Below, piece by piece: positions 1,437 to 23,155 of a DNA stretch of 27,186 nt (within the stretch, counting starts at the first letter, position 1; each line of letters begins with the position of its first letter). The stretch comes from a virus: IMG/VR virus record IMGVR_UViG_3300031578_009495, positions 67,128 to 94,313 of that record. The stretch is one strand, 5' to 3'. The position numbers and the translations under genes were made by a program. The notes beneath the pieces are model-generated. The model was not told where the DNA came from and did no database searches. It saw nothing but the letters and a program-made list of their open reading frames with translations.

Positions 1437-1649
1437 ATGTGGAACACACCATCTAAACAAACCCTATCCAAAATACCCTGCCTATACAAGACAGAGGGAG
1501 TATCCCTGAAGGATAAACAGATACACCTTCTTAAAAAGATGAGTAAGCAGCAACTTGCTGATAGCTTTGGTATTTCGTATAGTCACACATCACAAATAAT
1601 AAAGAATGAAAAATGGAATGAAAAGGATTATTCGATTGAATACTATTAA
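1437..1649 (+). pseudogene. Chimeric remnant: DUF2958-like N-terminus fused to an HTH tail of the type found on HNH homing endonucleases
   Basis: MWNTPSKQTLSKIPCLYKTEGVSLKDKQIHL resembles the start of DUF2958-like proteins but lacks the expected HFF..WY core. It continues as MSKQQLADSFGISYSHTSQIIKNEKW, which is HTH-like. Confidence 0.45.
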
Positions 1650-4600
1650 GCTTGTTGATTTTCTGGATGAGTATCAAGACGAGATAGCCGATTCAATCAT
1701 TCGCGACTACCCGCCTGTATATACGTTTAACGATAGAGAAAAATATGTTGATGATATAAAGAAACTGAAGCGCAAGCCATTCCTGTGCCAAATGGACGCA
1801 ATAAGTGCCTTGGCAAAGCTATTTTCAACAGAGGCCTCCGGAATCTTGGTCGGGGAAATGGGCACAGGTAAATCATTGATTTCTATAGCAATAGCCTATG
1901 TTTGTAAGTTTAAAAATGTACTTATTACAATGCCTCCACATTTGATATCGAAATATGAACGGGAAGTAATGATAACGATGCCGGAAGGTACCGCAAAGTG
2001 TCACCATCTTAAAAAGTTCACAGATGTTGATAAAGCAGTGGCATCGGCCAATGATGATCTGTATCACTTTTTCATTCTTGGCAGGGAGAGAGCAAAATTA
2101 AGCTATCAATGGAGACCGGCGTTTAATATAAAACAGAAAATTATTGAAATACCGGTAGCGGATAATGGAAATAGCCACATTGTTAAAAGAAAAGTAATAT
2201 TGGTTTGCTGCCCAAGATGTGGGGAGTTAATATATGACAAGGAGGGAATACCGCTTGGGCCAGAGGATCTTACTAAAAAGAAGACGGTGTGCGCTAACTG
2301 TAACGAACAAATGTGGCAAGCCAAGCAGGATGGCCCGAGACGATTTGCAGTTGCAGAATATATCAAGCGAAAACATAAGAATTTTTTTGACTTACTTGTG
2401 CTTGATGAATGTTTTCCAGCTGGCATTAAAGTAAAGACTAAATATGGAGAAAAAAGCATAGAGGATATAAAAATAGGTGAATATGTACTGTCTTTGGACG
2501 AAGATGGACTGGTTTATAAGAAAGTAGTTAGAGTCTTCAAGAAACTTGTCACTGGTCCTCTTGCGAATATTAAATATACTGATGGAAATCTGTTGTGTAC
2601 AAAGAACCACAATATTTATACCAATCGAGGAAAGATAAGGGCTGGTCAAATACAGTCAGCTGATATCATTTGGCGCTTAGAGGAGTGTAATCATGAAGAA
2701 GTGTGCAAGGTGTGGAAAAACACTAAAGAAAGAGAATGCCAAATATTGTTCAAAGAAATGTTTTTCATTGGCAATAACACAGTATCCAAAAACGATAAAA
2801 TGCAAGAGATGTGGGAAAAGCATGGTAGTTTATCGAGGGGGAAAAAGAAGCAAGAAATATTGTTCAGAAGAATGTCGACATTCCAAAAAAAGAAAATATC
2901 CATTTACAAGAGCATGCAAAGGGTGTGGCAAGGATATTTTAATAACATGCTCATCAAGACAAAAAAGACGTTTTTGCAATCCTTCCTGTTTGGTAAAATG
3001 GAGAATGCAGCATCCAGAGATGAGACCAAAAATAGTAATGACGGAAGAGCGAAAGCGAAAAATTGGAGAAAAGCAAAGGATTGCTCAGCAACGAAATCCG
3101 GAGTTGAGGAAAAACATATCAAAGAGAATGAAGCTAAACAACCCTATGAAACGACCAGAAATACGGAAAAAGGCTATCGAAGCGATGAGAGGGATGCCTT
3201 TCCCTGTAGAAAGAGGAGGCCGCGGGAAGGGACCGACCGTCCCACAAGCATTATTGGAGACAATACTTGGGTGGCCGATGGAGGTTACAATAAAGACAGG
3301 GAACAAAAAAATGCCATACTATTACAGTGCGGATTTGGCGGAAGAAACCTTGAAAATTGCAGTGGAGTGCGATGGGATTTCACACAAAATGTCAAAGGTG
3401 ATTGCGCGGGACCGAAGAAAAGACGAGATTTTACGGAAACTTGGATGGGTTGTATTGAGATTCAAGAACAGAGAAATTATAGAAGACACAAAGAGGGTAA
3501 TTTTAGAAATAGAAGAGTGTGTCCTAAAGAGGTCATTGGAGTTGAAGAGGTCAAGATAGCGCAGGTATATGTATATAATATAGAGGTTGAAGAAACCCAT
3601 AACTATTTTGCAGATGGAGTTCTTGTATCAAATTGTCACGAATATCGTGGTAGAAGTTCCGCACAAGGAATAAGTGCAGGCAATTTAGCCTCTGTTTGCA
3701 AACGATCTCTTGGTCTCTCGGGTACGATAGTGGGGGGTTATTCATCGAGTATTTTTCATTTATTGTACAGAATAACGAAAAGATTTAAAGATGACTATAA
3801 ACACGATGGAGTAAATTCTTGGATTAGCGATTACGGAATACTTGAACAGATAACAAAGAAATCAGCAGACGATTATAGCGACAACTCACAAAGTAAGGGA
3901 AAAAAATACGTATCGGCTCCTAGAGAAAAACCAGGAATTTCCCCGGTAATTCTGCCAAAATATCTTTTAGACAAAACTGTATTCATTCGACTAAGCGACA
4001 TAGCAATAGACCTACCACCTCTTACAGAGGAAATTGTTGATATTGAAATGTCAGCGGAACAAGAAGATGCTTACAACAACCTATACGATGATCTTAGAAT
4101 TGTTTTACTTGCAGAATTACAACGTGGCAACAAATCGCTTCTCGCTGTATATCTTCAGGCGTTATTGACATATCCTGACAGGTGCACCGTCGGGGAGTTT
4201 GTGTATAAAAAAACAGAAGGCGAAGAAGACCTGCTTATAGCATCGGCGCCGGCATTAAACGGTGACGTTTTATACCCAAAAGAACAGGCAATTATAGATC
4301 TGATCAAATCGGAAATGAAAGAAGGAAGAAAGGTTCTTGTGTTTTGTACCCATACCAACAGAAGAGACGTAACGGCACGACTGCAAGAAAAAATTCAATC
4401 TTTTGGAATAAGATCAGAAATATTAAAAGCAAATGTAGCTGCAGAAAAAAGAGAGGCATGGATTAAGGACCACGTAAACGATCTTGATTGTCTTATTACC
4501 AATCCTGCCCTTGTGCAGACCGGACTTGACCTTGTAGAGTTCCCCACAGTGGCATATTGTCAGTCTGGATATTCTGTCTATACCCTGAGACAGTCGTCAA

Positions 4601-5100
4601 GGAGATCTTGGAGAATAGGCCAAGATAAGCCGGTTAACATATACTATTTTGTTTATAGAGCTACCATGCAGGAGCAAGCCCTGAAGTTAATGGCCCTTAA
4701 AATGAAAGCAAGCCTTATCATAGAGGGTGAACTTGGAGAGGACGGGCTTGCCACATATAATGTTGGAAATGATAATCTGTTCTACGAACTTGCCAGGAAT
4801 ATCGCAAATAACATCTCAATAGATGGAGACCTGGAAACTATCTGGAAAACTGCACAGAAAAAGAAAGTAGATGGAAGTGATTTGTTGATAGAGAAAACGG
4901 ATATTGTGCCATCCCTTAACGACATTGTAGTGATTCCAGCAATAAAAATAGAGGAAAAGCATGAACTTTCCGCTTGGGATAAGCTGTATGTGGCCATGAT
5001 GCAAGAACAGGAGAAGAAACAGGATATTATGAGAGAGCGTAGAGAGAAAAGAGAAAGATTAAGACCAGCGGACGCACATCAGCAAATAGGATTGTTTTGA
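1606..5100 (+). CDS. SNF2/SF2-like helicase precursor containing an intein (about 756 aa after splicing; true start may be TTG 1636)
   Basis: Walker A GEMGTGKS, Zn-ribbon insert CPRC..CANC, motif II DE|CH split by the intein, motif III LSGT, motif V TGLDL and motif VI QSSRRSWRIGQ. Confidence 0.9.
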   Translation: MKNGMKRIIRLNTIKLVDFLDEYQDEIADSIIRDYPPVYTFNDREKYVDDIKKLKRKPFLCQMDAISALAKLFSTEASGILVGEMGTGKSLISIAIAYVCKFKNVLITMPPHLISKYEREVMITMPEGTAKCHHLKKFTDVDKAVASANDDLYHFFILGRERAKLSYQWRPAFNIKQKIIEIPVADNGNSHIVKRKVILVCCPRCGELIYDKEGIPLGPEDLTKKKTVCANCNEQMWQAKQDGPRRFAVAEYIKRKHKNFFDLLVLDECFPAGIKVKTKYGEKSIEDIKIGEYVLSLDEDGLVYKKVVRVFKKLVTGPLANIKYTDGNLLCTKNHNIYTNRGKIRAGQIQSADIIWRLEECNHEEVCKVWKNTKERECQILFKEMFFIGNNTVSKNDKMQEMWEKHGSLSRGKKKQEILFRRMSTFQKKKISIYKSMQRVWQGYFNNMLIKTKKTFLQSFLFGKMENAASRDETKNSNDGRAKAKNWRKAKDCSATKSGVEEKHIKENEAKQPYETTRNTEKGYRSDERDAFPCRKRRPREGTDRPTSIIGDNTWVADGGYNKDREQKNAILLQCGFGGRNLENCSGVRWDFTQNVKGDCAGPKKRRDFTETWMGCIEIQEQRNYRRHKEGNFRNRRVCPKEVIGVEEVKIAQVYVYNIEVEETHNYFADGVLVSNCHEYRGRSSAQGISAGNLASVCKRSLGLSGTIVGGYSSSIFHLLYRITKRFKDDYKHDGVNSWISDYGILEQITKKSADDYSDNSQSKGKKYVSAPREKPGISPVILPKYLLDKTVFIRLSDIAIDLPPLTEEIVDIEMSAEQEDAYNNLYDDLRIVLLAELQRGNKSLLAVYLQALLTYPDRCTVGEFVYKKTEGEEDLLIASAPALNGDVLYPKEQAIIDLIKSEMKEGRKVLVFCTHTNRRDVTARLQEKIQSFGIRSEILKANVAAEKREAWIKDHVNDLDCLITNPALVQTGLDLVEFPTVAYCQSGYSVYTLRQSSRRSWRIGQDKPVNIYYFVYRATMQEQALKLMALKMKASLIIEGELGEDGLATYNVGNDNLFYELARNIANNISIDGDLETIWKTAQKKKVDGSDLLIEKTDIVPSLNDIVVIPAIKIEEKHELSAWDKLYVAMMQEQEKKQDIMRERREKRERLRPADAHQQIGLF
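2410..3633 (+). mobile_element. Intein (408 aa) inserted in the helicase DECH motif
   Basis: Block A CFPAGIKVKT..KSIEDIKIGEYVLS, block B LCTKNH (TxxH), blocks F/G VYNIEVEETHNYFADGVLVSN, and Cys at +1. Removing it restores LVLDE-CHEY. Confidence 0.93.
2693..3559 (+). CDS. Nested out-of-frame endonuclease: Zn-ribbon repeats, NUMOD3-like region and DUF559/Vsr-like PD-(D/E)XK domain
   Basis: Own SD GAGGAG(2680-2685), 7 nt before the ATG. Three CxxCGK...(Y/F)C(S/N)xxC repeats. C-terminal 'ADLA....KIAVECDGISH.....RDRRKDEILRKLGWVVLRFKNREI'. Confidence 0.88.
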   Translation: MKKCARCGKTLKKENAKYCSKKCFSLAITQYPKTIKCKRCGKSMVVYRGGKRSKKYCSEECRHSKKRKYPFTRACKGCGKDILITCSSRQKRRFCNPSCLVKWRMQHPEMRPKIVMTEERKRKIGEKQRIAQQRNPELRKNISKRMKLNNPMKRPEIRKKAIEAMRGMPFPVERGGRGKGPTVPQALLETILGWPMEVTIKTGNKKMPYYYSADLAEETLKIAVECDGISHKMSKVIARDRRKDEILRKLGWVVLRFKNREIIEDTKRVILEIEECVLKRSLELKRSR

Positions 5101-5477: not shown

Positions 5478-5522
5478 CTAATTAACAAAACAAATTAATC
5501 TTAAAAATGAAGGAGAGAGAAG

Positions 5523-5669
5523 ATGAAAACAATTGACAAACAAATGGAAGATACAGCAAAAAAATTCATCGATGACTTTTTAAAGTGGAAAAACGATCCC
5601 ATTAAAGAACACAAGGATGAAGATTATGAGTGTAAATTGCGGGAAATGGTCAAAGCCTTAATGGAATAA
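5523..5669 (+). CDS. Small hypothetical protein (48 aa, MKTIDKQMEDTAKKF...)
   Basis: Below the ORF-track cutoff. AAGGAG SD; lies directly behind the promoter. Confidence 0.6.
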   Translation: MKTIDKQMEDTAKKFIDDFLKWKNDPIKEHKDEDYECKLREMVKALME

Positions 5670-5714
5670 TAATAAAATGCCGAGTTATCGGTTGAGCAAT
5701 CTGGAGGAGTCAAG

Positions 5715-5870
5715 ATGAGAGTAGAACTATATAAAATAATAGATGGCTGGATAAGGCTGGTTGATTATGGTGTTTTGTCACAAATGGAAAACTATGCAAA
5801 ACAGGGATACATTGTGGTGAAAACAGATGAGGCAAGACAATCAAAAAAGAATCAGGATGTTGGAAAGTGA
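5715..5870 (+). CDS. Small hypothetical protein (51 aa, MRVELYKIIDGW...)
   Basis: Strong SD GGAGGAG and an open frame. Confidence 0.6.
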   Translation: MRVELYKIIDGWIRLVDYGVLSQMENYAKQGYIVVKTDEARQSKKNQDVGK

Positions 5871-5935
5871 AATAGTTTATCTATCCAGATTATTAAATTA
5901 ACAAAACAATTAACCTAAATAATGGAGGTAAGACA

Positions 5936-6208
5936 ATGGAAACAACCGACATAAATGTTGCCCATAAACTTTTGTCTCATTTTCAGGTATTAGCTTGGGA
6001 GCGCTTGAAGGACACGGTCTGGTGGAAGACCAGTCCTAAGAAAGATATAACACTGCAAATAAAAGGGATAGAGTATAGGGAAACCAGCGGTCTTTATAGT
6101 AGGGGCAACACTCTATTCGTTGTGGCCGTTGCTACCGCAGGAAATGGAGAAAGTCAAGAAATTTTAATTCCGATAGAAGAACCAACCACAAAATCAAATA
6201 GCGGATAA
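5936..6208 (+). CDS. Hypothetical protein (90 aa)
   Basis: SD GGAGGT; in the ORF track. Confidence 0.7.
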   Translation: METTDINVAHKLLSHFQVLAWERLKDTVWWKTSPKKDITLQIKGIEYRETSGLYSRGNTLFVVAVATAGNGESQEILIPIEEPTTKSNSG

Positions 6209-6258
6209 TTAACATAGCTGACCTCAGCAGGTCGAAAAAGGCTGGAAAGTAGGGATAT

Positions 6259-6408
6259 ATGCGGAGACAAATAGGAACATTCCACGGCAGAGATGTGTAT
6301 TGGACTCACGACGGCCTGGCTATTGAGATGGACTTCAGTTATCTCGTTGCGCTGGATCTTGAAATGATCGAAAACATACGAAAACAAGTTGGAGGTTATT
6401 ATGCTTAG
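6259..6408 (+). CDS. Small hypothetical protein (49 aa, MRRQIGTFHGRDVYW...)
   Basis: Open frame with AGGGA upstream; fills the gap between neighbouring genes. Confidence 0.4.
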   Translation: MRRQIGTFHGRDVYWTHDGLAIEMDFSYLVALDLEMIENIRKQVGGYYA

Positions 6409-6467
6409 ATATTTAGTCGCTGCTTTATTATGTTTTGGCCTGGCCTGATTTTTAATGTTGTTTTTGG

Positions 6468-6481
6468 CCGGATTGATTTAA
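6468..6481 (+). repeat. 14-bp direct repeat CCGGATTGATTTAA, left copy flanking the PEP-CTERM gene
   Basis: Identical to 7272-7285. Confidence 0.8.
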
Positions 6482-6488
6482 AACTTAA

Positions 6489-6508
6489 GCCCCGGGTTTT
6501 CCGGGGCT
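6489..6508. other. GC-rich hairpin upstream of the PEP-CTERM gene
   Basis: GCCCCGG-GTTTT-CCGGGGC(T). No U-tract follows, so it may be a terminator or an mRNA stabiliser. Confidence 0.5.
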
Positions 6509-6547
6509 AAGGATACTAGTTAAACAACTTTTAAACAGGAGGATAAT

Positions 6548-7267
6548 ATGAAAAAGAGACTTATGGCATTATTTGTAATTTTGGGAGCGCTCAGTATGAT
6601 AAGTATTGCTGAGGCCACATTGGTAACAGTTGAATGGGACATAACCGTTAATAGCCGGCTTAATTATAATGATAGTACTAATGAACAAATTGGCCCCATA
6701 CATTCATACGCTTCAGCCACATTTGACAATGTAGTTACGTCTTCGCGTGATCAATGTGATGGTCATAGTACAGTAACATATTTCTCAGAGGATTATGATT
6801 TGGTATGGGTTACACCAATGGAGGACTTCATAGCTAACAATTTGTATAACGGTAACTATTCTACTGGAATATCTTATGCCTATGCAGTAACATTTGAAGC
6901 GTCTTCTGTTTGTCCTGAAGGAAGAACAGTAGGTTTGATGTCACAACTCATAGACACAGATAGTTCATGGAGGTATAATATTGATATTGTCAAGCGTGAA
7001 CATTCACAAACTGGGATGGAAGACTATGCTTTCACTCCTGAACTTCTTCTGGATTATTATAACAACCTAAAAGCATCTGGTGAGCAGTTAGATTATTGGG
7101 AACGCTCCATTCGCACAGGCCCATATTATGGATATTCATGGAGTGGTACTGCCGTTGTTTCTGACGTTATTGATCATTCTAATAACACTCCCATCCCTGA
7201 ACCAGCGACCTTGCTACTATTTGGCATTGGCTTGGCGGGCTTGGCTGTTATTAAGAAATTGAACTAA
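6548..7267 (+). CDS. PEP-CTERM sorting-domain exported protein
   Basis: Signal peptide MKKRLMALFVILGALSMISIAEA. C-terminal IPEPATLLLFGIGLAGLAVIKK (PEP, TM helix, basic tail). SD AGGAGG. Confidence 0.92.
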   Translation: MKKRLMALFVILGALSMISIAEATLVTVEWDITVNSRLNYNDSTNEQIGPIHSYASATFDNVVTSSRDQCDGHSTVTYFSEDYDLVWVTPMEDFIANNLYNGNYSTGISYAYAVTFEASSVCPEGRTVGLMSQLIDTDSSWRYNIDIVKREHSQTGMEDYAFTPELLLDYYNNLKASGEQLDYWERSIRTGPYYGYSWSGTAVVSDVIDHSNNTPIPEPATLLLFGIGLAGLAVIKKLN

Positions 7268-7271
7268 ACTT

Positions 7272-7285
7272 CCGGATTGATTTAA
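7272..7285 (+). repeat. 14-bp direct repeat CCGGATTGATTTAA, right copy
   Basis: Identical to 6468-6481; 4 nt after the PEP-CTERM stop. Confidence 0.8.
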
Positions 7286-7306
7286 CTCTTGCGCTTCGGA
7301 GGTCAA

Positions 7307-7518
7307 CACATAGTAAACATTTTACCGACAAACACTAACAATAAAGTTTAGATTCGCAAGCTGTCTGCATACAGTGAAGACATAAAATTTGACTGAGACT
7401 GTCGGAGAGACGACACGGAGAATCGGAGAACGAGCGCTTGCGGTATCACTCCGCAAGCTTTGGGAGATCCCCCCATGCAAAAGCATGCAGTTAACGAAAG
7501 TTAAGAAAAAAGGATCGG
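7307..7518 (+). ncRNA. Candidate structured ncRNA, copy 1 (family not recognised)
   Basis: Homologous to 22681-22901 with compensatory changes in several helices. GAAA tetraloop on the + strand. Confidence 0.7.
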
Positions 7519-7553
7519 TGGAATAGTTTGGATAACATATTGGGTAATTTGAT

Positions 7554-7760
7554 ATGAGGTGTGAAATGAATAAATTAGGATTGTATGGTGGAACAGCATG
7601 GATTGGATATTGGTCGGGATTCACAACAAGCCATGTAGGAGAAACAAGCAAACTCGTAGTATACACGTGGGATTTTCCTGTGGTAATAGCTATATTTATG
7701 CTCATAACTTTTTCTTTGGGCTATTTTGCGGGGGGGGGGGCTTGGAATGAACTTAGATGA
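7554..7760 (+). CDS. Small membrane protein containing a G11 tract
   Basis: Hydrophobic segment FPVVIAIFMLITFSLGYF. The start may be ATG 7566. Confidence 0.55.
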   Translation: MRCEMNKLGLYGGTAWIGYWSGFTTSHVGETSKLVVYTWDFPVVIAIFMLITFSLGYFAGGGAWNELR

Positions 7761-7950
7761 ATTCAGAGAAAAGGAAATAGAAAGAGAAATTAATAGTTTA
7801 AGTCAATTTGAAATGTGTAGGTTAGTTAGGTTTGCTCCTTCGGGGCATAAATATTTTGACGAAAGAGAACCTTATTATAAACTCTTTGAAAAACGGTTTG
7901 GAGAACTCGGAGGTTTTACTCCAGAAATATCTAAACAGTTAGGGAGGTGA
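7747..7950 (+). CDS. Conserved-looking phage hypothetical protein (MNLDEFREK...GGFTPEISKQLG)
   Basis: ORF track 7726..7950. The ATG at 7747, behind the G tract, is the more plausible start. Confidence 0.7.
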   Translation: MNLDEFREKEIEREINSLSQFEMCRLVRFAPSGHKYFDEREPYYKLFEKRFGELGGFTPEISKQLGR

Positions 7951-7953
7951 AAA

Positions 7954-8088
7954 GTGAATAAAATAAGCTTTTTGGTCGGTTGCTGGTTTTTGATATCCGG
8001 CAACCATTGGGATAATATGTTTTGGGTTGCGGCCGGACTGATGGTAGTTGGTTTTTTGATTGCAAGATGGCTGGTTAAAATAGTTTAA
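7954..8088 (+). CDS. Small membrane protein (44 aa)
   Basis: SD GGAGGT, GTG start and two hydrophobic stretches. Confidence 0.5.
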   Translation: MNKISFLVGCWFLISGNHWDNMFWVAAGLMVVGFLIARWLVKIV

Positions 8089-8149
8089 GGGTAGTGCAAC
8101 CCGATTGCAGATAAAAAGAAATCTTTATATAATGATTTACACTTTTCCC

Positions 8150-8178
8150 TTGACAAAAGAATCCATCTGATATAGGAT
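8150..8178 (+). promoter_or_regulatory. Sigma70-type promoter of the Cro-like/recombination operon
   Basis: TTGACA(8150-8155), 17-nt spacer, TAGGAT(8173-8178). Confidence 0.7.
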
Positions 8179-8214
8179 GAGCGATCAACTTACAATTAAT
8201 TAAAAGGGGACGAA

Positions 8215-8421
8215 ATGTTTAACAAAGGAAAAATTAAAGAGCTACGAGAAAAGAAAAAATGGTCGCTGGCAGATGTGGTTTACGAACTAGCAAAAAGGGA
8301 GCACAGGTATGCCAGACAGACTGTAAGCAATTGGGAGCTTGGGATAACAGAACCAAAAGCTTCCGATGTTGCGGCCCTGGCAGAGGCATTTGGTGTGCCT
8401 GTTAAAGTATTTTTTGAATAG
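8215..8421 (+). CDS. XRE/Cro-family HTH regulator
   Basis: IKELREKKKWS...RQTVSNWELGITEP....ALAEAFGV. Confidence 0.9.
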   Translation: MFNKGKIKELREKKKWSLADVVYELAKREHRYARQTVSNWELGITEPKASDVAALAEAFGVPVKVFFE

Positions 8422-8493
8422 GGGTGCCATGGAAGAAAAAGAATGGCAGGAGTTTGCAATATGGTTACATGAATTAAAAATGGGGAGGGCAAA

Positions 8494-9525
8494 ATGACAG
8501 AGGTAAATTCAGTAGAAAAAGAGATAGAAAGGTATAAAAAGCTTGGGGCAAATCTGTTGGGACCTTCAATCCACGCTGGCGAAGTTTCACAGTTTCACAA
8601 GATTATAGTTGATTCGGTATTGTTATCGGTTGATCCAAATGATGGAGATGTCTATAGCTACAAGAAGGCAACAAACGATCAGCCTGCTCAGTTTATTATT
8701 GCTGGGCAAGGACTCCAGCGATTAGCTATGTGCGCTGGTATAGTATGGAGTCCAAACGATACCAGGGCAACGTCTCAGTCTCAAAAGTATGTAGCTTATC
8801 GTGCTGTTGGGTCTATTCGTAAAAGCGATGGAACGTTTACTGGATTTCAGGCAGAATATGATATAGACATAGATATCGTTGAAGATGACCTGCGCGAAAA
8901 TTTCGCAGAAAAAAGAAAAAAATGGAGCGAGCAACAATGGTTTCAAAAGCTGGGGGCAGACGGTCAAAACAACTACATAGAGACAGCTATCCGTAAAGAG
9001 TTAAATTTCAAAAAGAAACACAAGACTAAGATCGCGGCTTCAGGGGCGAAAAATCGTGTAATTCGCGTACTGTTGGGTATCAAGAAGACCTATACACTTG
9101 CTGAATTAAAGAAACCATTCGTTATCCCGCGTGTAGTTCTAAGGCCTAATTATAATGACCCGGATGTAAAGAAAATGATGCTTGTGGCAGCTATCCAAGC
9201 ACAAACAAGCATATTCGGCGCAGCTCCAAGTCAGTTATTGGAAGATTATGTACAATTGCCGGAAGAAGATCCTCCTATCGATATTCCGATAAGCGATTTT
9301 GACAATGAAGACCCCCCCGGACCAGAAACACCGGACAACCTTACCAGCAAAAAAGCAGACTTCCTTGCATCTGACAATCAGTCTAAAATAACCATACTTG
9401 ATGCAATGGCAAAGATGGCCGGCTACGATCTTCATCAAATTAAAAAACCGCTGGACAAGTTTACAGAGGAAGAACTCGAAGGTTTTTTTGATAGACTGGA
9501 TGATCTTTTAGAAATTCCATTTTGA
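8494..9525 (+). CDS. Hypothetical protein, possible single-strand annealing/recombination protein
   Basis: Position between cro and sbcDC. Globular N-domain (GLQRLA..AGI; A.SGAKNRVIR.LLG), acidic/Pro linker and acidic 'EIPF' SSB-like tail. Function is inferred only. Confidence 0.5.
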   Translation: MTEVNSVEKEIERYKKLGANLLGPSIHAGEVSQFHKIIVDSVLLSVDPNDGDVYSYKKATNDQPAQFIIAGQGLQRLAMCAGIVWSPNDTRATSQSQKYVAYRAVGSIRKSDGTFTGFQAEYDIDIDIVEDDLRENFAEKRKKWSEQQWFQKLGADGQNNYIETAIRKELNFKKKHKTKIAASGAKNRVIRVLLGIKKTYTLAELKKPFVIPRVVLRPNYNDPDVKKMMLVAAIQAQTSIFGAAPSQLLEDYVQLPEEDPPIDIPISDFDNEDPPGPETPDNLTSKKADFLASDNQSKITILDAMAKMAGYDLHQIKKPLDKFTEEELEGFFDRLDDLLEIPF

Positions 9526-9528
9526 TAG

Positions 9529-9653
9529 CCCGCGCTGAGCGGCCCGACGCGGGACTGCTTGGATATGTTTGTGTGGAACATTCCGAGCGACGGAATATCG
9601 GGCCGTGCCATGTACCTCCTGCTCGCTGGCAGACCGAGTGGCAAAAGTCTGCC
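9529..9653 (+). other. GC-rich structured intergenic element with two potential H-type pseudoknots
   Basis: CCCGCG/CGCGGG crosses GCGGCCCGA/TCGGGCCGT. GCTCG/CGAGT crosses GGCAGAC/GTCTGCC. Confidence 0.5.
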
Positions 9654-9677
9654 CTCCATACAAGAAAGGAAACAGAA

Positions 9678-9851
9678 ATGATAATGCCGTTCGGGAAATT
9701 TAAAGGACACGATTTAGAGAGCCTGCCAAGTTCATATCTTAAATGGTTGGCTGAAAACATCAACGAAGATATTCCAAAAAATAAAGCTATTTGCATGGCG
9801 GCAGATAAGGAATATTTGTTCAGGGAAAAGAATAGTTGTCATATTGAGTGA
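9678..9851 (+). CDS. DUF3820-like small protein
   Basis: MPFGKFKG..LE.LP.SYLKWL motif. The AAGGA SD favours ATG 9678 over the track start 9522. Confidence 0.75.
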   Translation: MIMPFGKFKGHDLESLPSSYLKWLAENINEDIPKNKAICMAADKEYLFREKNSCHIE

Positions 9852-9867
9852 AAGAAAGAGGATAGCC

Positions 9868-10008
9868 ATGATAAAACAAAGCAAAATAGAAATAATAAAA
9901 AGAGTGAGCTGTATTTTGGGATTGTACGGGCTTTCGGTGAGCATAGTCGTGTTTGCTGTTTACGGTGCTATTTGTTTTTTAAAGAAAATTGGGTGGCCGA
10001 TATGGTGA
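9868..10008 (+). CDS. Small membrane protein (46 aa)
   Basis: SD GAGGA and one TM segment. Confidence 0.5.
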   Translation: MIKQSKIEIIKRVSCILGLYGLSVSIVVFAVYGAICFLKKIGWPIW

Positions 10009-10022
10009 TAATAGGAAGTGAT

Positions 10023-10142
10023 GTGAGAAAGTGTCAATATTGTGGCGGAGTGCTTTCTTTTAGAGACGACTGTGGTTTCTGTAGGAAGTGTGAGGAAGAG
10101 GTTAATAAGGTGGCCATGGAGATGAACAATCGTCGCCATTGA
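10023..10142 (+). CDS. Small Zn-ribbon protein (39 aa)
   Basis: GTG start; CQYC...CRKC. Confidence 0.45.
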   Translation: MRKCQYCGGVLSFRDDCGFCRKCEEEVNKVAMEMNNRRH

Positions 10143-10217
10143 ATGTTTAGTCGCTCCACGATGCGGGGGCAAGGTTTTCTAAAGGTAATAAAAGAAAACA
10201 GGAAAAGGAGGGCAAGG

Positions 10218-10415
10218 ATGATAAAAACTATCCAGGAAAGATTAAACTGGTGCAACAAAAGGCTCAGCCAAATTATTTTTGCACAAAAGACTTTTGAACC
10301 TGCTGAACTGCCTTTTGCTTATGGTAGTGGTCGGATCAGGGAACTGGAAAATCAGATAGCGTTTCTTGAAGGCATTATCAAAGGCCACATAAAAGGAAAG
10401 GGGGTGATGAGATGA
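10218..10415 (+). CDS. Hypothetical protein (65 aa)
   Basis: Part of track ORF 10143..10415, with SD AAGGAGG before ATG 10218. The stop overlaps the sbcD start. Confidence 0.6.
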   Translation: MIKTIQERLNWCNKRLSQIIFAQKTFEPAELPFAYGSGRIRELENQIAFLEGIIKGHIKGKGVMR

Positions 10416-11623
10416 AAAAGATACTTCATTTCGGGGATATACATGCGCGCGATAAGGATATTGATGAGGTTGAGAAATGCCTTAATTTTATGGTATCTGT
10501 TGCTAAAGAAGAGCAACCAGATCTCTTGGTGAATGCAGGCGATACTTTTGATGCAGGTGGAATTCGCGCTGATAGTTTGTCTGCAAAACTTATCTTTAAG
10601 ATATTTAAAGAATTGGCAGACATAGCGCCAGTTATTATTATCACTGGGACTCCCAGTCATGATAGTAATATTCCATCTCTTCTTAAATATATATCGGCAA
10701 GATACCCTATATTTGTTTCTGAGCGGCCAGAGCAAATCTATCTTTGCAAAGGTGATCTTAATGCAGACCCAGCAAAGCTTTTTGCACCTATAGAAGCCGT
10801 TATATCGACATTGCCATCGCCAACCAAGCAACATTGGAATTCAGACTCAAGTATTAATGAAACAGATGCGGAGATCGGGGCTGCTCTTAGTGGAATTTTT
10901 GCAGGATTTGGCGCTCAAGCTGCTCAATATGATTGTCCACATATCTTAATGATGCATTGTACTATAAGGGGAGCAAAGCTATCTGAAAATACTCAAATGA
11001 TAGGCAGGGATATCGAAGTTGGAAAGGATCAGATTAAACTAACAAATGCAAACCTGGTTTGTTGTTCGCACATACATTATGCCCAGGCTATCGATAAAAT
11101 CACATTCTATTCAGGCAGTCTCTTCCAGGGAGACTCAAGCGAGTTTGGCCAAAACTTTGGATTCTATATCCACGAAATAGATACTGCAAACCGATTGCAG
11201 GCATCTAAATACATCATCACACCCTATACAAAATTATATGCAATCAAACATGATTTCACTGACTCACAAGGCGACTTCCTGGTGCCCTTCACACCGGAAA
11301 CTCTAAAGAATGTGCGGGATGCGGTAGTAAAAGTCGAGATAAAAGTTTTTGAAGATGAAGTTGCAAAAATAGATCGTGAAGATCTGGAACGTAATCTTTC
11401 AGAGGCAAAAAGTTACGATATAAAGATTATCAGAACGCCAAGGGAGAACGTTCGGAGTGAGAACATATTGAAACTTGTAAGGCTGAGAGACAAGCTGACC
11501 GAGATGGCGAAATTGAAGAATGAAGATGTTCCGGAACCTATTTTGGCAAAGGCCGATGAACTTGAGTCTATGGAAGGTGATGAGATTGTGGCATTGGCTT
11601 GGTCGATAATATTTAAAAAATAA
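10412..11623 (+). CDS. sbcD: SbcD/Mre11-like metallophosphoesterase nuclease
   Basis: HFGDIH, AGDTFD, GTPSHD, SHIH and YSGS motifs; adjacent to an SMC ATPase. Confidence 0.88.
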   Translation: MKKILHFGDIHARDKDIDEVEKCLNFMVSVAKEEQPDLLVNAGDTFDAGGIRADSLSAKLIFKIFKELADIAPVIIITGTPSHDSNIPSLLKYISARYPIFVSERPEQIYLCKGDLNADPAKLFAPIEAVISTLPSPTKQHWNSDSSINETDAEIGAALSGIFAGFGAQAAQYDCPHILMMHCTIRGAKLSENTQMIGRDIEVGKDQIKLTNANLVCCSHIHYAQAIDKITFYSGSLFQGDSSEFGQNFGFYIHEIDTANRLQASKYIITPYTKLYAIKHDFTDSQGDFLVPFTPETLKNVRDAVVKVEIKVFEDEVAKIDREDLERNLSEAKSYDIKIIRTPRENVRSENILKLVRLRDKLTEMAKLKNEDVPEPILAKADELESMEGDEIVALAWSIIFKK

Positions 11624-11830
11624 TGGGCAAGAACAGTATCAGGTAAGAGATGGGGGAGATGTCCAGAAAAAACCAAATTGCAAAAAAGGAGGTGATGCTT
11701 AATAATGCCTGATCAAAAAGAGATAGCTAGGAAATTATCTAAAATTAAAACGGCTCGAATAAAATAGCTGGGGGGTGCGCATCCAGCTATATAGAAAAAA
11801 CGCATTGCAAAGAAACAGTAAAATTAAATC

Positions 11831-11859
11831 TTGACAATGATTTTTCAATCTGCTATGCT
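11831..11859 (+). promoter_or_regulatory. Sigma70-type promoter with extended -10
   Basis: TTGACA(11831-11836), 17-nt spacer, TGc-TATGCT(11854-11859). Confidence 0.7.
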
Positions 11860-11889
11860 TTAAACATAAAAAGATGGGGACTGAGGCAA

Positions 11890-14184
11890 ATGAAAATATT
11901 GAGATTACGCACTAAAGGATTTATTGGACTACAAAAAGGACTTGGGGTACAAGAAACAGACACAGATTTGAAAAATTTGTCGGGGCTGGTGGCAATTGCC
12001 GGGGAAAACGGAGCTGGCAAGAGCAGTTTTCTTGAATTACTTTCGCCGTATGCTTGCCTATTTTCAAGATCTCCGACATTCAAGAACCACACTTTTCTCC
12101 GCGATAGTTACCGCATAATTGATCTTGAATACGAAGGATCGCATTATGAATGTACTGTAAAGATAGATAGCGAAACGGGCAAAAGTGAAGGCTACATAAA
12201 GAAAGACGGATTATCATTAACCGACGGGAAAATTAGCACCTACAGTCAAAAGGTTGAAGAAATATTTGGCTCAAAGACATTATTCGAAAACTCCATATTT
12301 TGCCCTCAAAACAGCAGGAAGATTTCGGACCTTACAACCGGTCAGCTAAAGTCCCTCTTCGCAGAATTTCTCCGATTAGATAAATTGATATCATACGAAA
12401 CCACCTCCAAGCAATGCCTTGTAGTCATAGAATCCTTACGCAAGCACATAGAAAGCGAGACGAGCATCCTGAAAAATAAGGCAGAAAACCGACCTGAGAT
12501 CGAGCGTGAGCTATCAGAAAAGACAACTAAGTGCGAAGAGTTGCAGGAAGAAATAAAACGGCTCACAGCTCAAATAAGCGAGTTGGAAAAAGATTATGAA
12601 ACCATAAAGGAATCTATATCGAAAGATGCGATAAAAAATAGCCGATTGAAAGACCTCGAACAAAACAGGACCCGCTTTAAGGAAGACAAAGACAGAGAAC
12701 TTGAATCAACTGAAAATGAACTTAACAGGCTGCGGATCACGCTACGCGGAATAAACGACGAGCTATGTAAATATGAATTCTTGTTGAAGGACAAAGATAA
12801 AATACTTGAGGCCTGTCGGCAAGAAGCAGATATTTTAGAACAAATCCCTACCACTGAAAAAGATATTGATAATAGAAAAAAGGAGTTAGACAGATACAAT
12901 GCTGAAATAAACGAAATAGCAAAAACAATTGATGAGCGAAGGAGGATTATAGATGCCGGAAAGAAAGATCCGGAAATTGCAAGACTCGAAGCGGAAATCA
13001 GGTTTAATCGTGAAAAGGCAGTTGACCTCTCGAAAAGAGATCCCGAATGCCAAAGCAAGGTATGCTCGTTTATTGTTGGAGCGCTCAAGGCACAAGACGA
13101 GATTCCAAGCATGGAAGAAAACCTATCTATCAGACAGGGACTTATTTCTGTAACAATTCATAAAGCTACTGAAGAGATGGAAAACAGCAATGGCTTCCTG
13201 CCAGGAATTGAACAAAAACAAAAAGATAGTGAAACCGTCCTCCAGGAATTAAAAGAAGAGAAACAGAGACTTGATAATACCCTAAAAACTGTACGCAAAC
13301 TATCAATAAAGAAACCCGACTTGGCTGTAGCTGTTTCGCAAACAGATAACCTGGAAAAAAGAAAAGGGGAGATCACAGACGAAGGAATAAGACTTAGAGA
13401 CAAAAAAGAGAAGGCTATAGAAAGAATTGATAAAGAGGAACAGATTTTATCTGTAGAAATAGACGATATCCAAAAAGAAATAGACAACAGCTTGGATGAA
13501 AAGAAAGCAAGCTTAGAACAAATGATCAAGCTAACAACTTTTACCACTAAAGATACGAATAAGAAAATATCTGGTATAAATGAAAGCATAGCAGTTTTAA
13601 AACAGACGATATCCGAAAAGATATCCGCAGAAAAAGAACTGGCGGTCAAGAAAACCCGGATTGACAAGCTTATCCAAGAACAAAGTGAATGGATTTATCT
13701 GCGGAATGCCTGCTCTAAGGACGGTTTAAGGGCGCTTGAAATCGATAGCGTTTGTCCTGTTATTACTAATTATGCAAATGAGCTGCTAAATATGAGCTTT
13801 GGTCCAACATACTCAATAAAACTGAAAACTCAGAATGACGATGGGAAGGAAATTTTAGATATTGTGGTGATAGGAGTCGATGGCGAAGAGGTTGTACTTG
13901 ATAATCTCAGTGGAGGAGAAAAATGCTGGATATTGATGTGTATCAGGCTATCTATGACACTTATCAGTAAAGAAAAGAGTGGTAAGAACTTTTTAACTGG
14001 GTTTTCGGATGAGATAGATGGATCACTTGACGTAAACAGGGCGATTGATTTTATGCATATGTATCGGGCCTTTATGAAGCTTGGTGGGTTTGAAACCTTT
14101 TATTTTATCTCGCATAAAACGGAAATAATTTCGCTCGCTGATCATATCATTAAGTTTGGAAGTGGGCAGATAGCAATGGATTGA
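11890..14184 (+). CDS. sbcC: SbcC/Rad50-like SMC ATPase
   Basis: Walker A GENGAGKS, Q-loop FCPQ, long coiled coil, signature LSGGE, Walker B/D-loop SDEIDGSLD and H-switch ISH. Confidence 0.92.
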   Translation: MKILRLRTKGFIGLQKGLGVQETDTDLKNLSGLVAIAGENGAGKSSFLELLSPYACLFSRSPTFKNHTFLRDSYRIIDLEYEGSHYECTVKIDSETGKSEGYIKKDGLSLTDGKISTYSQKVEEIFGSKTLFENSIFCPQNSRKISDLTTGQLKSLFAEFLRLDKLISYETTSKQCLVVIESLRKHIESETSILKNKAENRPEIERELSEKTTKCEELQEEIKRLTAQISELEKDYETIKESISKDAIKNSRLKDLEQNRTRFKEDKDRELESTENELNRLRITLRGINDELCKYEFLLKDKDKILEACRQEADILEQIPTTEKDIDNRKKELDRYNAEINEIAKTIDERRRIIDAGKKDPEIARLEAEIRFNREKAVDLSKRDPECQSKVCSFIVGALKAQDEIPSMEENLSIRQGLISVTIHKATEEMENSNGFLPGIEQKQKDSETVLQELKEEKQRLDNTLKTVRKLSIKKPDLAVAVSQTDNLEKRKGEITDEGIRLRDKKEKAIERIDKEEQILSVEIDDIQKEIDNSLDEKKASLEQMIKLTTFTTKDTNKKISGINESIAVLKQTISEKISAEKELAVKKTRIDKLIQEQSEWIYLRNACSKDGLRALEIDSVCPVITNYANELLNMSFGPTYSIKLKTQNDDGKEILDIVVIGVDGEEVVLDNLSGGEKCWILMCIRLSMTLISKEKSGKNFLTGFSDEIDGSLDVNRAIDFMHMYRAFMKLGGFETFYFISHKTEIISLADHIIKFGSGQIAMD

Positions 14185-14247
14185 GATTTATTAATAGGTG
14201 GATTATATTTTCTGCCTATCACACTGTTATATTGCCGAAAGGAAACT

Positions 14248-14385
14248 GTGAAATATTTTTTTGATATACAAAGTTCGGTGTTTAGGTTTTTACCAAAAAG
14301 ATACCAAAGGAAAATTGGGAAAGACTATCAGATAACTATAAAATGGTTATGGTTTTGGATACGGTTACAGGCAATTGATGAATAA
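14248..14385 (+). CDS. Cassette ORF 1, hypothetical (45 aa, MKYFFDIQSSVFRF...)
   Basis: Follows GTTATAT(14226) and an AAGGA SD; stop abuts attC1. Confidence 0.55.
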   Translation: MKYFFDIQSSVFRFLPKRYQRKIGKDYQITIKWLWFWIRLQAIDE

Positions 14386-14484
14386 TATAACCAGCAGTTG
14401 CAGCCGACCATACAAGCTGGTTCGCTCTCGTAAGGTTATTTATTCCGCCACGCTCCAACGTGGCGGCTGAACTGAACGTTAGAT
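14385..14484 (+). mobile_element. attC-like site 1 (100 bp)
   Basis: R'' ATATAAC, L'' CAGTT(G)CAGCCG pairing with L' CGGCTGAACTG with one extrahelical base, R' GTTAGAT. Confidence 0.8.
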
Positions 14485-14503
14485 TTCTTGAGGAGATAAG
14501 AGC

Positions 14504-14638
14504 ATGGAAGAGATTACATGTAGTGTATGCGGTTGTCATGTAGGGTGGATCACAGACAATGCCCCGAAAGGATTCATATATTGTGACGACTGCAAAAAAC
14601 AAGACGAAGACGAAGAAGAAGAAGAAAGCGAAATATAA
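14504..14638 (+). CDS. Cassette ORF 2, Zn-ribbon microprotein with acidic tail (44 aa)
   Basis: SD GAGGAG; CSVC...CDDC then DEDEEEEESE. Its stop TAA lies inside R'' of attC2. Confidence 0.7.
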   Translation: MEEITCSVCGCHVGWITDNAPKGFIYCDDCKKQDEDEEEEESEI

Positions 14639-14694
14639 CCAGCCGCTGGACTCTGACGGCAAAAAACCGCCGCAGGTCAGCTATAACGTTATAT
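14633..14694 (+). mobile_element. attC-like site 2 (62 bp)
   Basis: R'' ATATAAC, GCTG(G)AC(T)CTG pairing with CAGGTCAGC with two extrahelical bases, inner stem CGGC/GCCG, R' GTTATAT. Confidence 0.85.
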
Positions 14695-14707
14695 GTAAGA
14701 GGAAATT

Positions 14708-14860
14708 ATGATACCATATCCATTATTAGAAATTAAAATAAAATATAATTGGTTTTCTACTGTTTATTCTTTGTGGGATCTTTTGAATCAGTGCAAACTT
14801 GCAAAAGCTGATTTTCATGAGATGAAAAATGATTTAAGAATATTTGGGTTTAACATATAA
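14708..14860 (+). pseudogene. Cassette ORF 3, apparently frameshifted (MIPYP/LLEIKIKYNWF...FGFNI)
   Basis: SD GAGGA and ATG 14708, with a stop after 9 codons. Removing one C from the CCC at 14719-14721 gives a ~49-aa frame ending in ATATAAC. Confidence 0.45.
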
Positions 14861-14881
14861 CACACAGATTCAGCTTTCGTA

Positions 14882-15070
14882 ATGTATAAACATCCAGAAA
14901 TAAAAGATGATGAGTTTATGCTGTCTAATGTTAAAGTCGGCGAAGAATGGCTATTTGGATTTTTCGATAGACAGCCGACTAAAAATGGCAGGCTTGGCAA
15001 AATAGCATACGACAATATGGGCTACGAAGTGCCTGGGCATGTTCCTATTTTTGTGAAACGAGAAATATAA
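14882..15070 (+). CDS. Cassette ORF 4, hypothetical (62 aa)
   Basis: In the ORF track. Its stop lies inside ATATAAC(15065-15071), followed by a half attC (AAATCACTGGAGCTAACGG). Confidence 0.65.
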   Translation: MYKHPEIKDDEFMLSNVKVGEEWLFGFFDRQPTKNGRLGKIAYDNMGYEVPGHVPIFVKREI

Positions 15071-15109
15071 CAAATCACTGGAGCTAACGGAAGAAATTGG
15101 ATTATTAGC

Positions 15110-15922
15110 ATGGCTCGCAATAGAATGATAAAAACTGAATTTTGGGAAGATGAAAAATTAGCGACCATAAGTAGAGATTCAAGATTGACATTCATTGCCT
15201 TATGGAATTTATCAGACGATTACGGAGTTGTTAAGGGGAATTCGATTTGGCTGAAAAATAGAATCTTTCCTTATGATGAAAAACTTAAACTGGTTGATTT
15301 TGAAGTTTGGTTAAATGAACTTATAAATGTTAAAACCATCTATCCGTTTAATGATAATAATGAGAAGTATTATTATATCAAGAACTTCCTCAAACATCAA
15401 AAAATAAATAGGCCATCGGAAAAAAGAAATCCTGAGCCACCAATAAATATTTTGGAGGACTCATTGAATACTCATGGAATATTCAATGAGTCCTCATTAA
15501 ATACTCACGGAGTATTCAATGAGGACTCATGTCCCAAAGAGAAAGAGAAAGAGAAAGAGAAAGAGAAAGAGAAAGAGAAAGAGAAAGAGAAAGAGAAAAA
15601 AACCAATAAGAGATTACCGGATTGGTTGCCCTTAGAAATATGGAATGAATTTAAAAAATATCGCATTAAAATAAAAAAACCTCTTACAGAATACGCTGAG
15701 ACTTTAAACATAAAAAAATTAGAAAAACTTAAGGAGCATGGAAACGATCCAATAAAAATTATAGAGCAAACTATAATGCAAGGGTGGCAAGGTTTTTTCC
15801 CACTTAAAGAAAAGCAAGGAGAGAATGATGCAAGGTTTAAAAGTGAGAATGGAAAGAATGGAACACACGAGGATGGCGATGATAAATATTCAAAGCTTGG
15901 TAGAACCCTATCTACAGAATAA
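15110..15922 (+). CDS. Phage replication initiator / replisome organiser
   Basis: MARNRMIKTEFWEDEK N-domain (wHTH type), internal iterons, (KE)10 linker and C-domain 'W.EFKKYR..IKKPLT...QGWQGFF'. Lies directly upstream of a DnaC-like ATPase. Confidence 0.85.
   Translation: MARNRMIKTEFWEDEKLATISRDSRLTFIALWNLSDDYGVVKGNSIWLKNRIFPYDEKLKLVDFEVWLNELINVKTIYPFNDNNEKYYYIKNFLKHQKINRPSEKRNPEPPINILEDSLNTHGIFNESSLNTHGVFNEDSCPKEKEKEKEKEKEKEKEKEKEKKTNKRLPDWLPLEIWNEFKKYRIKIKKPLTEYAETLNIKKLEKLKEHGNDPIKIIEQTIMQGWQGFFPLKEKQGENDARFKSENGKNGTHEDGDDKYSKLGRTLSTE
15455..15535. repeat. Iteron array, probable replication origin
   Basis: Degenerate 11-bp tandem units (ACTCATTGAAT, ACTCATGGAAT, ATTCAATGAGT, CCTCATTAAAT, ACTCACGGAGT, ATTCAATGAGG). 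Perfect 16-bp inverted repeat at 15455-15470/15480-15495. Confidence 0.75.
15536..15595 (+). repeat. (AAAGAG)x10 perfect hexamer microsatellite
   Basis: Directly visible; encodes (KE)10. Confidence 0.95.
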
Positions 15923-16742
15923 AGACATAGTCAAAGCAAGAGAGGTGTTAATAGAAGAGTTAGAAAAAATTGATATGGATACAAAAAGAATTGCAGCTTT
16001 TGTTGAATTGTTTGAAAAATATCCACCAGACAATGAAGAATGTCCTATTTGTAAAGAAAAAACAATAGGGCACATATTTAATGATCATAAAGTTGAATGG
16101 GAATTAATATTATTTTGTAAGCCATGTAAATTAGAAGAATATAAAAAAACATTATACAAAGAAATAGATGTAAAAATGACGGACGTTGTTTCAAAAAGAT
16201 ATTGGGATGCAAAAATATCTGATTTTCCATCTATGTATAAAGATTTACATAAAAAAGAAGATGGTCTTTTCCTTTATGGCGCGAGGGGCGTTGGGAAAAC
16301 CCATCTAATGGCCGCCATCGCAAGAGAAATCATATTAAATACTAAACCACATCTATTGGAAGGATGTGGGCGCCCAGGGGAATATGTAAGCTCTGTAAAT
16401 ATTCCGGTTTTTATATCGACACCTGAATTATTAATACAGATAAGAAATTGCTTTAATAATAAAAATGCAGATGATGGAGTCACAGAAGAATGGCTTTTGG
16501 ATAAATATAGCAGAGCAGATGTCTTAATGCTTGACGATTTAGGGGCAGAAAAACCAACAGAATGGGTATTACAGACATTATATTTAATTATAGATAGAAG
16601 ATATCGAAACATGAAAAAAACCATAGTATCGTCCAATTATAGTCTAGGCCAAATTACAAAAAGACTTGATGATCGTATCAGTAGTAGAATTGCAGGGATG
16701 TGCCAGGTTATTCAAATGACGGGAAAAGATCGACGACTATAA
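15825..16742 (+). CDS. DnaC/IstB-like AAA+ helicase loader
   Basis: CPIC..CKPC Zn site, Walker A GARGVGKT, Walker B LMLDDLGAE, 'IIDRRY', 'SSN' and 'RISSRI'. Confidence 0.92.
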   Translation: MMQGLKVRMERMEHTRMAMINIQSLVEPYLQNKDIVKAREVLIEELEKIDMDTKRIAAFVELFEKYPPDNEECPICKEKTIGHIFNDHKVEWELILFCKPCKLEEYKKTLYKEIDVKMTDVVSKRYWDAKISDFPSMYKDLHKKEDGLFLYGARGVGKTHLMAAIAREIILNTKPHLLEGCGRPGEYVSSVNIPVFISTPELLIQIRNCFNNKNADDGVTEEWLLDKYSRADVLMLDDLGAEKPTEWVLQTLYLIIDRRYRNMKKTIVSSNYSLGQITKRLDDRISSRIAGMCQVIQMTGKDRRL

Positions 16743-17030
16743 ATCACAGATACCAAAAATAATAGCAAAAAACTCTTGACAAAATTAACAAAAAAGGAGA
16801 ATGATAGTAAATCTTTCATTAACAAATATTAACGATTTGGGCAAAAAATAAGGCCGATAACCAAGGTCTTAAAATTGATAGTTTAAGTTTTTATTAACCC
16901 CATAGCCGCCACACGATTGAAGGAGGCTTAAAAACGGACACCGGAGGCAAGCAGTCAGCTTGCTGTTGATAGTGTCAATAAAGTTGACTGTTAATGACTG
17001 TTAGCTTTTTACAATCGGTTAGAGATAACA

Positions 17031-17588
17031 ATGCAATTAAGATCACCATGCAGAAGATGTACGAGACGGAAAGCAGACAAAAATGATTGTGTTAAAGACT
17101 GCAATGCGATTGCACTTTACAATAGAAACAGCGAAGCAGAATATGATGAAGGGGGGATTATAGCAATGGAAAAGGAACTTAATAAACTTGCATTAGAACA
17201 CGTAAAAAGTATTGAAGATAAGCCAGAGGTTAAAGAGATAGAGATTAAAGAAAAAGTTCAATGCATTAATCCAATATGTGACGGTAATGCAATGGTCAGA
17301 AAGGGAACCGGAGAGCCCATAAATGGATATTGTCAGGCTTGTGTAAGAGCTGGCCTAAGTAAAAAGAAAAAAGGAACGAATGCAACAGAAACAGGAGGAA
17401 AGATTGTGAAAGAAGAGAAAAAGAAAGTTGTTAAATCAACGGATAAATCGAAAGAACTTGTATTGGATCTAACTGGCTACACACGCATAGAAGAGCTATT
17501 AACTGAAATGTCAGACAAGATGATGTTACCAAGAGAACATATCGTGGTAACTTTAATCGGAGAGGCGCTGGCGAGACGGGCAGATTGA
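17031..17588 (+). CDS. Hypothetical Cys-rich protein
   Basis: SPCRRC..C...C and CINPIC..CQAC clusters. Confidence 0.65.
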   Translation: MQLRSPCRRCTRRKADKNDCVKDCNAIALYNRNSEAEYDEGGIIAMEKELNKLALEHVKSIEDKPEVKEIEIKEKVQCINPICDGNAMVRKGTGEPINGYCQACVRAGLSKKKKGTNATETGGKIVKEEKKKVVKSTDKSKELVLDLTGYTRIEELLTEMSDKMMLPREHIVVTLIGEALARRAD

Positions 17589-17621
17589 TAAAAACATAAA
17601 GTGGCATGGGGGAGGGAAGGC

Positions 17622-18935: not shown

Positions 18936-18955
18936 TAGTGTGACGGTGTGGCTTA

Positions 18956-19324
18956 ATGGAAAAAGAATATCTAATAGACCCTGTGGCGAAACCAAGGCAA
19001 ACGCAAAGAGATCGTTGGCAAAAAAGAACCTGTGTAATGAAGTATAGAGACTTCGCGGATAAGTGCAGAGCGTTAAAAATATATGTTCCGGAAGCCGGTG
19101 CGCATGTTACGTTCATCCTGCCCATGCCAGCATCATGGTCTAAGAAAAAGAAGGTTGCGATGGACGGGCAACCACATCAGCAACGGAAAGATATCGATAA
19201 CCTCATAAAGAGTCTTTTGGATGCTTTATACCATGACGATTCCTGTGTTTGGGATATAAGAGCAACGAAGATATGGGGCAGAATAGGCAAAATAATCATA
19301 AACGAAGGAGACTTAAACAAATGA
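18956..19324 (+). CDS. rusA: RusA-family Holliday junction resolvase
   Basis: KPRQTQ, F.LPMP.SWSKKKK and H.Q.KDIDNLIKSLLDAL..DD. Confidence 0.9.
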   Translation: MEKEYLIDPVAKPRQTQRDRWQKRTCVMKYRDFADKCRALKIYVPEAGAHVTFILPMPASWSKKKKVAMDGQPHQQRKDIDNLIKSLLDALYHDDSCVWDIRATKIWGRIGKIIINEGDLNK

Positions 19325-20091: not shown

Positions 20092-20093
20092 AG

Positions 20094-20985: not shown

Positions 20986-21014
20986 ATAAATCATTATTGA
21001 ATTAATGAAAAGAC

Positions 21015-23154: not shown

Positions 23155-23155
23155 C

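Follow-up and report, generated by a model that had tools for sequence, protein, structure and literature searches.

IS607-family elements, of which IS607, IS1535, ISXfa1 and CboIStron are described examples, have a GG core at both junctions, insert without target duplication and carry short direct repeats (PMC6188088, 10.1101/2023.08.09.552727, PMC10690162). They lack terminal inverted repeats; the sites of their TnpA are short motifs 10 bp apart in the ends (PMC6188088), so that the end repeats are phased, and the right end encodes an omegaRNA with a pseudoknot adjoining the guide. Pro-Fanzor TnpB proteins are defined by a D-P-G RuvC-I motif and a shifted RuvC-II glutamate (10.1101/2023.08.09.552727), features shared with the mimivirus Fanzor2 ApmFz2 (PDB 9B0L; PMC11832414). 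Protein-less elements made of ends and a guide scaffold are already known as a kind: Fanzor ghost loci (PMC10432273), among which the Spu-1 ghosts have a conserved interior of their own; the PATE-like omegaRNA elements of IS200/IS605, which keep the scaffold (PMC10055086); and standalone omegaRNAs, which work in trans (PMC10691335). These known cases, which are used in trans, are eukaryotic Fanzor1, Y1 single-strand or IscB-type loci, whereas the two copies analysed here are of the IS607 pro-Fanzor type and lie in a phage. They add another member to the kind, and our literature search found no study testing natural gene-less IS607 pro-Fanzor elements in phage.

The window, a stretch of 27,186 nt, comes from a 94-kb virus record (G000) that was recovered from soil metagenomes and is ~52% complete, with phage replication genes around the copies. 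Both copies are intergenic, lie on the same strand as their flanking genes and are 15.4 kb apart. Their identity of 76% over 222 nt (BLASTN, E 8e-39) is far beyond chance. The initial annotation had described a duplicated structured element with compensatory base changes; all of its blocks and helices were located in both copies, and the compensatory changes are real. Its 3' ends (7518 and 22901) also hold, but the starts move from 7307 and 22681 to 7303 and 22678, as set by the GG-bounded empty-site joints described below. Copy 1 thus spans 7303-7518 (216 bp) and copy 2 spans 22678-22901 (224 bp), both on the plus strand. GG precedes each copy (7301-7302 for copy 1) and forms its last two bases (7517-7518 in copy 1). 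No tnpA or tnpB ORF was found inside either copy. The annotation had regarded ends of a known IS or MITE as the finding that would speak against a new RNA family, and this is what the copies turned out to be: IS607 ends joined around a TnpB omegaRNA scaffold. We consider it almost certain that they are gene-less IS607 derivatives and not a new ribozyme.

The key to this identity lies outside the window. The last 65 nt of the copies recur at G000:63654-63718, 3.4 kb upstream, where they overlap the stop codon of a tnpB gene; this cognate right end, and a third element within the window, had been missed in an inventory that correctly listed the two copies. The full IS607 element is ~1725 bp long, and its two genes (G000:62062-63694) encode a TnpA with a Resolvase domain and a protein with TnpB domains. 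The serine recombinase gene tnpA (G000:62062-62661), in which the serine motif is present, precedes tnpB (G000:62186-63694), and from its sequence the element looks intact. The 502-aa TnpB carries D301-P-G, E440 and D473, and its only PDB match is the mimivirus Fanzor2 (9b0l, E 1e-22). By the D-P-G RuvC-I motif and the C-terminally shifted RuvC-II glutamate, this TnpB is of the pro-Fanzor type. Compared with pro-Fanzor proteins and ApmFz2, it is found in a phage, its closest relatives (61-74%) are from Desulfobacterota genomes and another phage and not from Cyanobacteria, and it has no zinc-finger cysteines.

The same right and left ends were found in full elements of Desulfobacterota and cyanobacterial genomes. 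The right ends of the full relatives stop at the same ATCGG as the copies, and the left ends of the relatives and of both copies read GG, a few bases, then AYAGTA. In copy 1, the left end (7303-7350) consists of GG, 5-7 nt and AYAGTAA and matches the phage's full element as well as five other loci (L165, L166, L170-L172). As in IS607-family elements, the ends of the copies carry short direct repeats and not inverted repeats. RTTAAY-type motifs 10 bp apart occur in the right end, and copy 2, the third element and the full element have them on the left side as well; in the left end of copy 1 the phased repeats are degenerate, with one match, as against two in copy 2. These 10-bp-spaced repeats are probably TnpA sites, by analogy with the described elements. 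The copies thus resemble IS607-family elements in their GG cores, their ends and, as shown below, their right-end omegaRNA; they differ in having no tnpA, tnpB or group I intron and in measuring 216-224 bp versus 1725 bp for the phage's full element. An IStron reading is not favored, as no group I intron core was detected (Rfam to E=1) and the copies are intergenic and not inside an expressed gene.

A covariance model trained solely on 14 full elements, with the copies left out, matches 7426-7518 (75.6 bits) and 22805-22901 (74.6 bits) over its full length (E ~5e-13). Judged by this match, the last ~95 nt of both copies are the omegaRNA core of TnpB. In the common fold, a short linker separates stem 1 from a small hairpin; two stems follow, and an A-rich linker leads to the end. 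Stem 1 (7436-7458, 8 bp with a 7-nt loop; 22819-22841 in copy 2) corresponds to a hairpin in the G-A-R-N-I...R-A-L codons at the 3' end of tnpB and is present in the full elements. It is followed by the small hairpin (7462-7472), which shows covariation among 21-24 elements, and by two further stems (7474-7504), the second of which overlaps the 10-bp-spaced right-end repeats where TnpA would bind, going by PMC6188088. The right end (7512-7518) consists of the pseudoknot 3' strand and the GG core, and all of these features are on the plus strand.

The loop of the small hairpin (7466-7470) pairs with the five bases preceding the terminal GG; in copy 2 the strands are 22849-22853 and 22895-22899. 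The pairing of GATCC with GGATC had been noticed before and is upheld, but not as an ordinary junction closure: GATCC (7466-7470) sits in the loop of hairpin 7462-7472, and the pairing is therefore a pseudoknot. This pseudoknot is the one required by TnpB and Fanzor2 guide RNAs. As in ApmFz2, it engages the last scaffold bases, and the left flank is G-rich; its span is ~53 nt here compared with ~190 nt in ApmFz2. Across elements it occurs as GAUCC/GGAUC, GAUAC/GUAUC, GAUAG/CUAUC, GAUAA/UUAUC and GAUUG/CAAUC. Among 21 elements, pairing is kept in 39/42 variable cells, against a shuffle mean of 23.9, and among the 11 distinct combinations in 19 of 22 cells versus 11.2 in shuffles (p 0.0007); a mis-picked anchor in L167 lowers the count, and the shuffles ignore relatedness. 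In the model alignment of 21-24 elements, which leans to nested helices and whose model does not contain the pseudoknot, ~97-98% of pseudoknot cells are paired (96.7%), and 13/19 pairs change on both sides. The covariation across full elements supports the fold of the family rather than present use of the two copies.

The proposal that selection acts on RNA structure is thus borne out by a conserved fold with compensated pairs, and a gene-specific riboswitch is still considered unlikely. A second suggested pseudoknot or switch, CTGCAT with ATGCAG, is unsupported. Both copies carry it unchanged, so covariation is absent, and in 8 full elements the stretch 60-260 nt before the right end held no exact counterpart of the complement.

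Sequence conservation ends exactly at GG in all elements, and the flank beyond varies. The predicted guides are 7519-7538 for copy 1, which matches the empty allele, and 22902-22921 for copy 2, both on the plus strand and with a length taken from the reRNA architecture (10.1101/2023.08.09.552727). No second GG-adjacent target for these guides was found in the 94-kb, ~52% complete record.

To define the insertions, contigs of four sequencing runs were aligned to window positions 5500-24500 at 85% likeness. For copy 2, a joint from 22674 to 22899 skips 224 nt with three shared letters (run X2), and for copy 1 a contig runs from the left flank directly into 7517 (run X2). For the third element, a joint from 16795 to 17017 skips 221 nt with two shared letters (runs X1 and X2). 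All three empty-site joints rejoin at GG without target-site duplication, giving the limits 7303-7518, 22678-22901 and 16798-17018. The contigs have a depth of 2.6-4x and short sides (20-39 nt), and the joints are credible since they coincide with ends already inferred from sequence comparison. The copies were therefore inserted precisely at GG cores, with no duplication of the target. The joints record presence or absence but not which way the change went, and an ancestral state would leave the same empty site as an excision. This presence/absence pattern between samples is consistent with mobilisation by the cognate TnpA. Further joints in related contigs (8179-8292, 9859-9991, 19599-19782 and 7736-7954) have no GG-core bounds and are ordinary indels between phage variants.

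These results bear on the reading preferred in the initial annotation, a phage ncRNA or ribozyme that stands alone and has no link to transposons. It would explain the real covariation, and a scan of the window gave zero Rfam matches up to E=1, in agreement with the novelty proposed; but the ends and the 3' fold are common to tnpA-tnpB elements, and the empty sites are precise and GG-bounded. We regard this reading as highly improbable. Among the families that had been considered, the mobile option stands, while for the 3' half nothing supports a new ribozyme or an antitermination RNA. Inspection by eye found no fit, in order or pairing, to hammerhead, pistol, HDV-like or group I core motifs.

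The third gene-less IS607-type element (16798-17018, plus strand, 221 bp) has a left end like that of copy 2 and a different interior. Its pseudoknot strands (16915-16919 with 17012-17016) differ in sequence from those of the copies, and the pairing is intact in all three miniatures. The full-element covariance model gave no match to it, which points to a more distant subfamily. A TTGACA box (16776-16781) lies 16 nt before this element, and the insertion may thus have interrupted a promoter of the phage. A further tnpA of IS607 type, different from the first and encoding a MerR-like HTH and a Resolvase domain, lies at 26805-27186 and is cut by the record end; it might serve the third element.

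The more serious alternative is that the copies are MITE-like IS607 miniatures kept through their DNA ends only, with the scaffold as a passenger that no longer guides TnpB; the apparent compensation could then result from quasi-palindrome correction during replication. This explanation makes them IS607 derivatives just the same. Single-sequence folding gave only modest z-scores against shuffles (-2.9 and -1.7). A search for sigma-70 promoters and terminators within both copies found none, a TAAAAT hexamer being present without a matching -35 box. Scaffolds can also be lost, as right-end-only remnants and a ~50-bp left-end/right-end fusion without guide scaffold occur in other phages (L182:2563-2612, L181:3327-3366, L186). 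Yet stem 1 is located ~60-85 nt from the end, further inward than the TnpA repeats. The two copies agree there at only 13/23 positions, with three pairs compensated, the length kept and 7-8 of 8 pairs retained. Such divergence with length and pairing kept suggests RNA selection after gene loss. Moreover, the pseudoknot preserved in the three miniatures is long-range and no local palindrome, and all three are co-oriented with transcription. The passenger explanation is therefore unlikely in our judgement, and we favor the view that selection has conserved the hairpins so that the copies stay usable as guide scaffolds.

Within this IS607/omegaRNA interpretation, only a ~55-nt stretch of copy 1 lacks an assignment. 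This private 5' module (7362-7415, plus strand; 22735-22789 in copy 2) consists of a hairpin (7362-7382), a conserved linker (7383-7399) and a second hairpin (7400-7415). Positions 7363-7402 are identical between copies at 37/40 sites, and the right-end core at 55/60, both far above stem 1 or the left end. Two of the three differences in 7363-7402 form one compensated pair, and another compensated pair lies in the next hairpin (7400-7415). A loop CAGT could pair with a downstream ACTG in an H-type pseudoknot. Similarity of the module to full elements (tnpA, tnpB and the E-N-Q island described below) and to other right-end loci was not above shuffles. Exact-pattern scans of IMG/VR returned four matches without the rest of the element and no true homologue, and the module contains no sigma-70 promoter and no Rfam ribozyme match. 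The module may extend the guide RNA on its 5' side, act as a synapsis spacer, bind a protein or form an RNA unit of its own. As an extension, it would bring the guide RNA to ~155 nt, compared with 144 nt in ISXfa1; the synapsis spacer of IS1535 is ~84 bp (PMC6188088).

One version of the last option is that the copies are IS607 ghosts in which the module works as an RNA in its own right, such as a self-cleaving or nuclease-blocking fold, and sets the guide-RNA 5' end without tnpB in cis. The conservation, the compensated pairs, the possible H-type pseudoknot and the lack of a traceable source in full elements all suit this idea. However, it draws on two sequences with helices chosen after the fact, the Rfam and exact-pattern searches offered no ribozyme or homologue, and a promoter, a protein site, a fragment of an unsampled parent element or a TnpA synapsis spacer would serve equally well. 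We hold it to be improbable.

Gene-less relatives occur in another phage beside its full element (L180) and in several Desulfobacterota-order genomes. Ten gene-less relatives, including the third element, keep a short island derived from the tnpB E-N-Q codons (window 16853-16866; L180:~870-890; L218, L221, L246, L247, L250, L253, L257 and L259). In full elements (L003 and relatives), the island coincides with the E-N-Q codons, at a distance of 620-640 nt from the right end, and has the motif GA-K-AACCAAG. Its Gln codon is CAA in 17/17 scored elements, which are related and so not independent, as against 140 CAA and 148 CAG elsewhere in these genes. The island is absent from copies 1 and 2 (p about 0.7). 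Its retention by several apparently independent gene-less lineages makes it a probable, hitherto undescribed cis element of the pro-Fanzor IS607 group; no published description was found in the literature consulted on these elements. The island could pair with the linker that follows stem 1, but the three linkers that deviate (L168, L189, L259) are not matched by compensatory changes, and we do not claim this pairing. It is tempting to speculate that gene-less pro-Fanzor IS607 elements need an extra cis part, the island in most and the private 5' module in these copies, perhaps setting or protecting the guide-RNA 5' end, although we consider this doubtful.

Several further observations concern these relatives. 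L180:825-998 is a 172-bp ghost with an intact right end, and the full element on the same phage contig (L163:4310-4370) has a damaged right end that ends in ATCTG. One genome (G002) has seven model matches besides its full element (L218, L220, L221, L223-L226); two have enough upstream DNA and are without tnpB, and the rest lie at contig ends. A gapped right-end pattern had 0 matches in IMG/VR and in 0/401 genomes, a DNA search of the 401 genomes gave short end matches only, and BLASTN against named phages and plasmids returned no match.

Other parts of the window are also variable or mobile. A run X2 contig is without 6480-7284 and copy 1, and thus without a PEP-CTERM protein gene (6548-7267), which is therefore an accessory gene. 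A contig of the same run skips 23237-24324 in a phosphoribosylglycinamide synthetase (purD-like) gene (23156-24376). An intein in a SNF2-type helicase (1606-5100), an endonuclease VII/HNH gene (24796-25407) and a NUMOD3 homing-endonuclease gene (26222-26812) mark this phage as rich in selfish elements.

We then propose a working model, to which we assign a probability of roughly 0.8. The miniatures would consist of a left end, the ~55-nt private module, the omegaRNA scaffold and a right end, moved by TnpA and used by TnpB in trans. The serine recombinase TnpA would bind the phased end repeats and, acting in trans, excise or insert the miniatures. Transcripts reading through from the co-oriented phage genes would supply the scaffold RNA, the last ~85-150 nt of which would fold into the scaffold. 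TnpB would load this RNA in trans, use the flanking ~17-20 nt as the guide and cut the empty allele beside a GG-ending TAM. Recombination after the cut could restore or spread the element, that is, homing, also between co-infecting relatives; restoration by a cut followed by recombination has been shown for IS605 and IS607 elements (PMC10055086, PMC10690162). Some features speak against current activity of the copies. They are only 76% identical, so their mobility may be old, and the left end of copy 1 is worn. The left flank of copy 2 is CGG, in contrast to AGG or GGG at the others seen; the ISXfa1 TnpB does not cut a CGG-flanked target (10.1101/2023.08.09.552727), and copy 2 may thus be a poor TnpB target.

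Together, our results remove a candidate new ribozyme, and comparing the elements defines a minimal scaffold of ~85-95 nt, backed by covariation, for the bacterial clade that is closest to Fanzor2. Within tnpB, the E-N-Q island may lead to a cis element not yet described. A single phage holds a full pro-Fanzor IS607 element and three miniatures with different guides, and its relatives hold the empty alleles, which makes guide use in trans and homing between phages directly testable.
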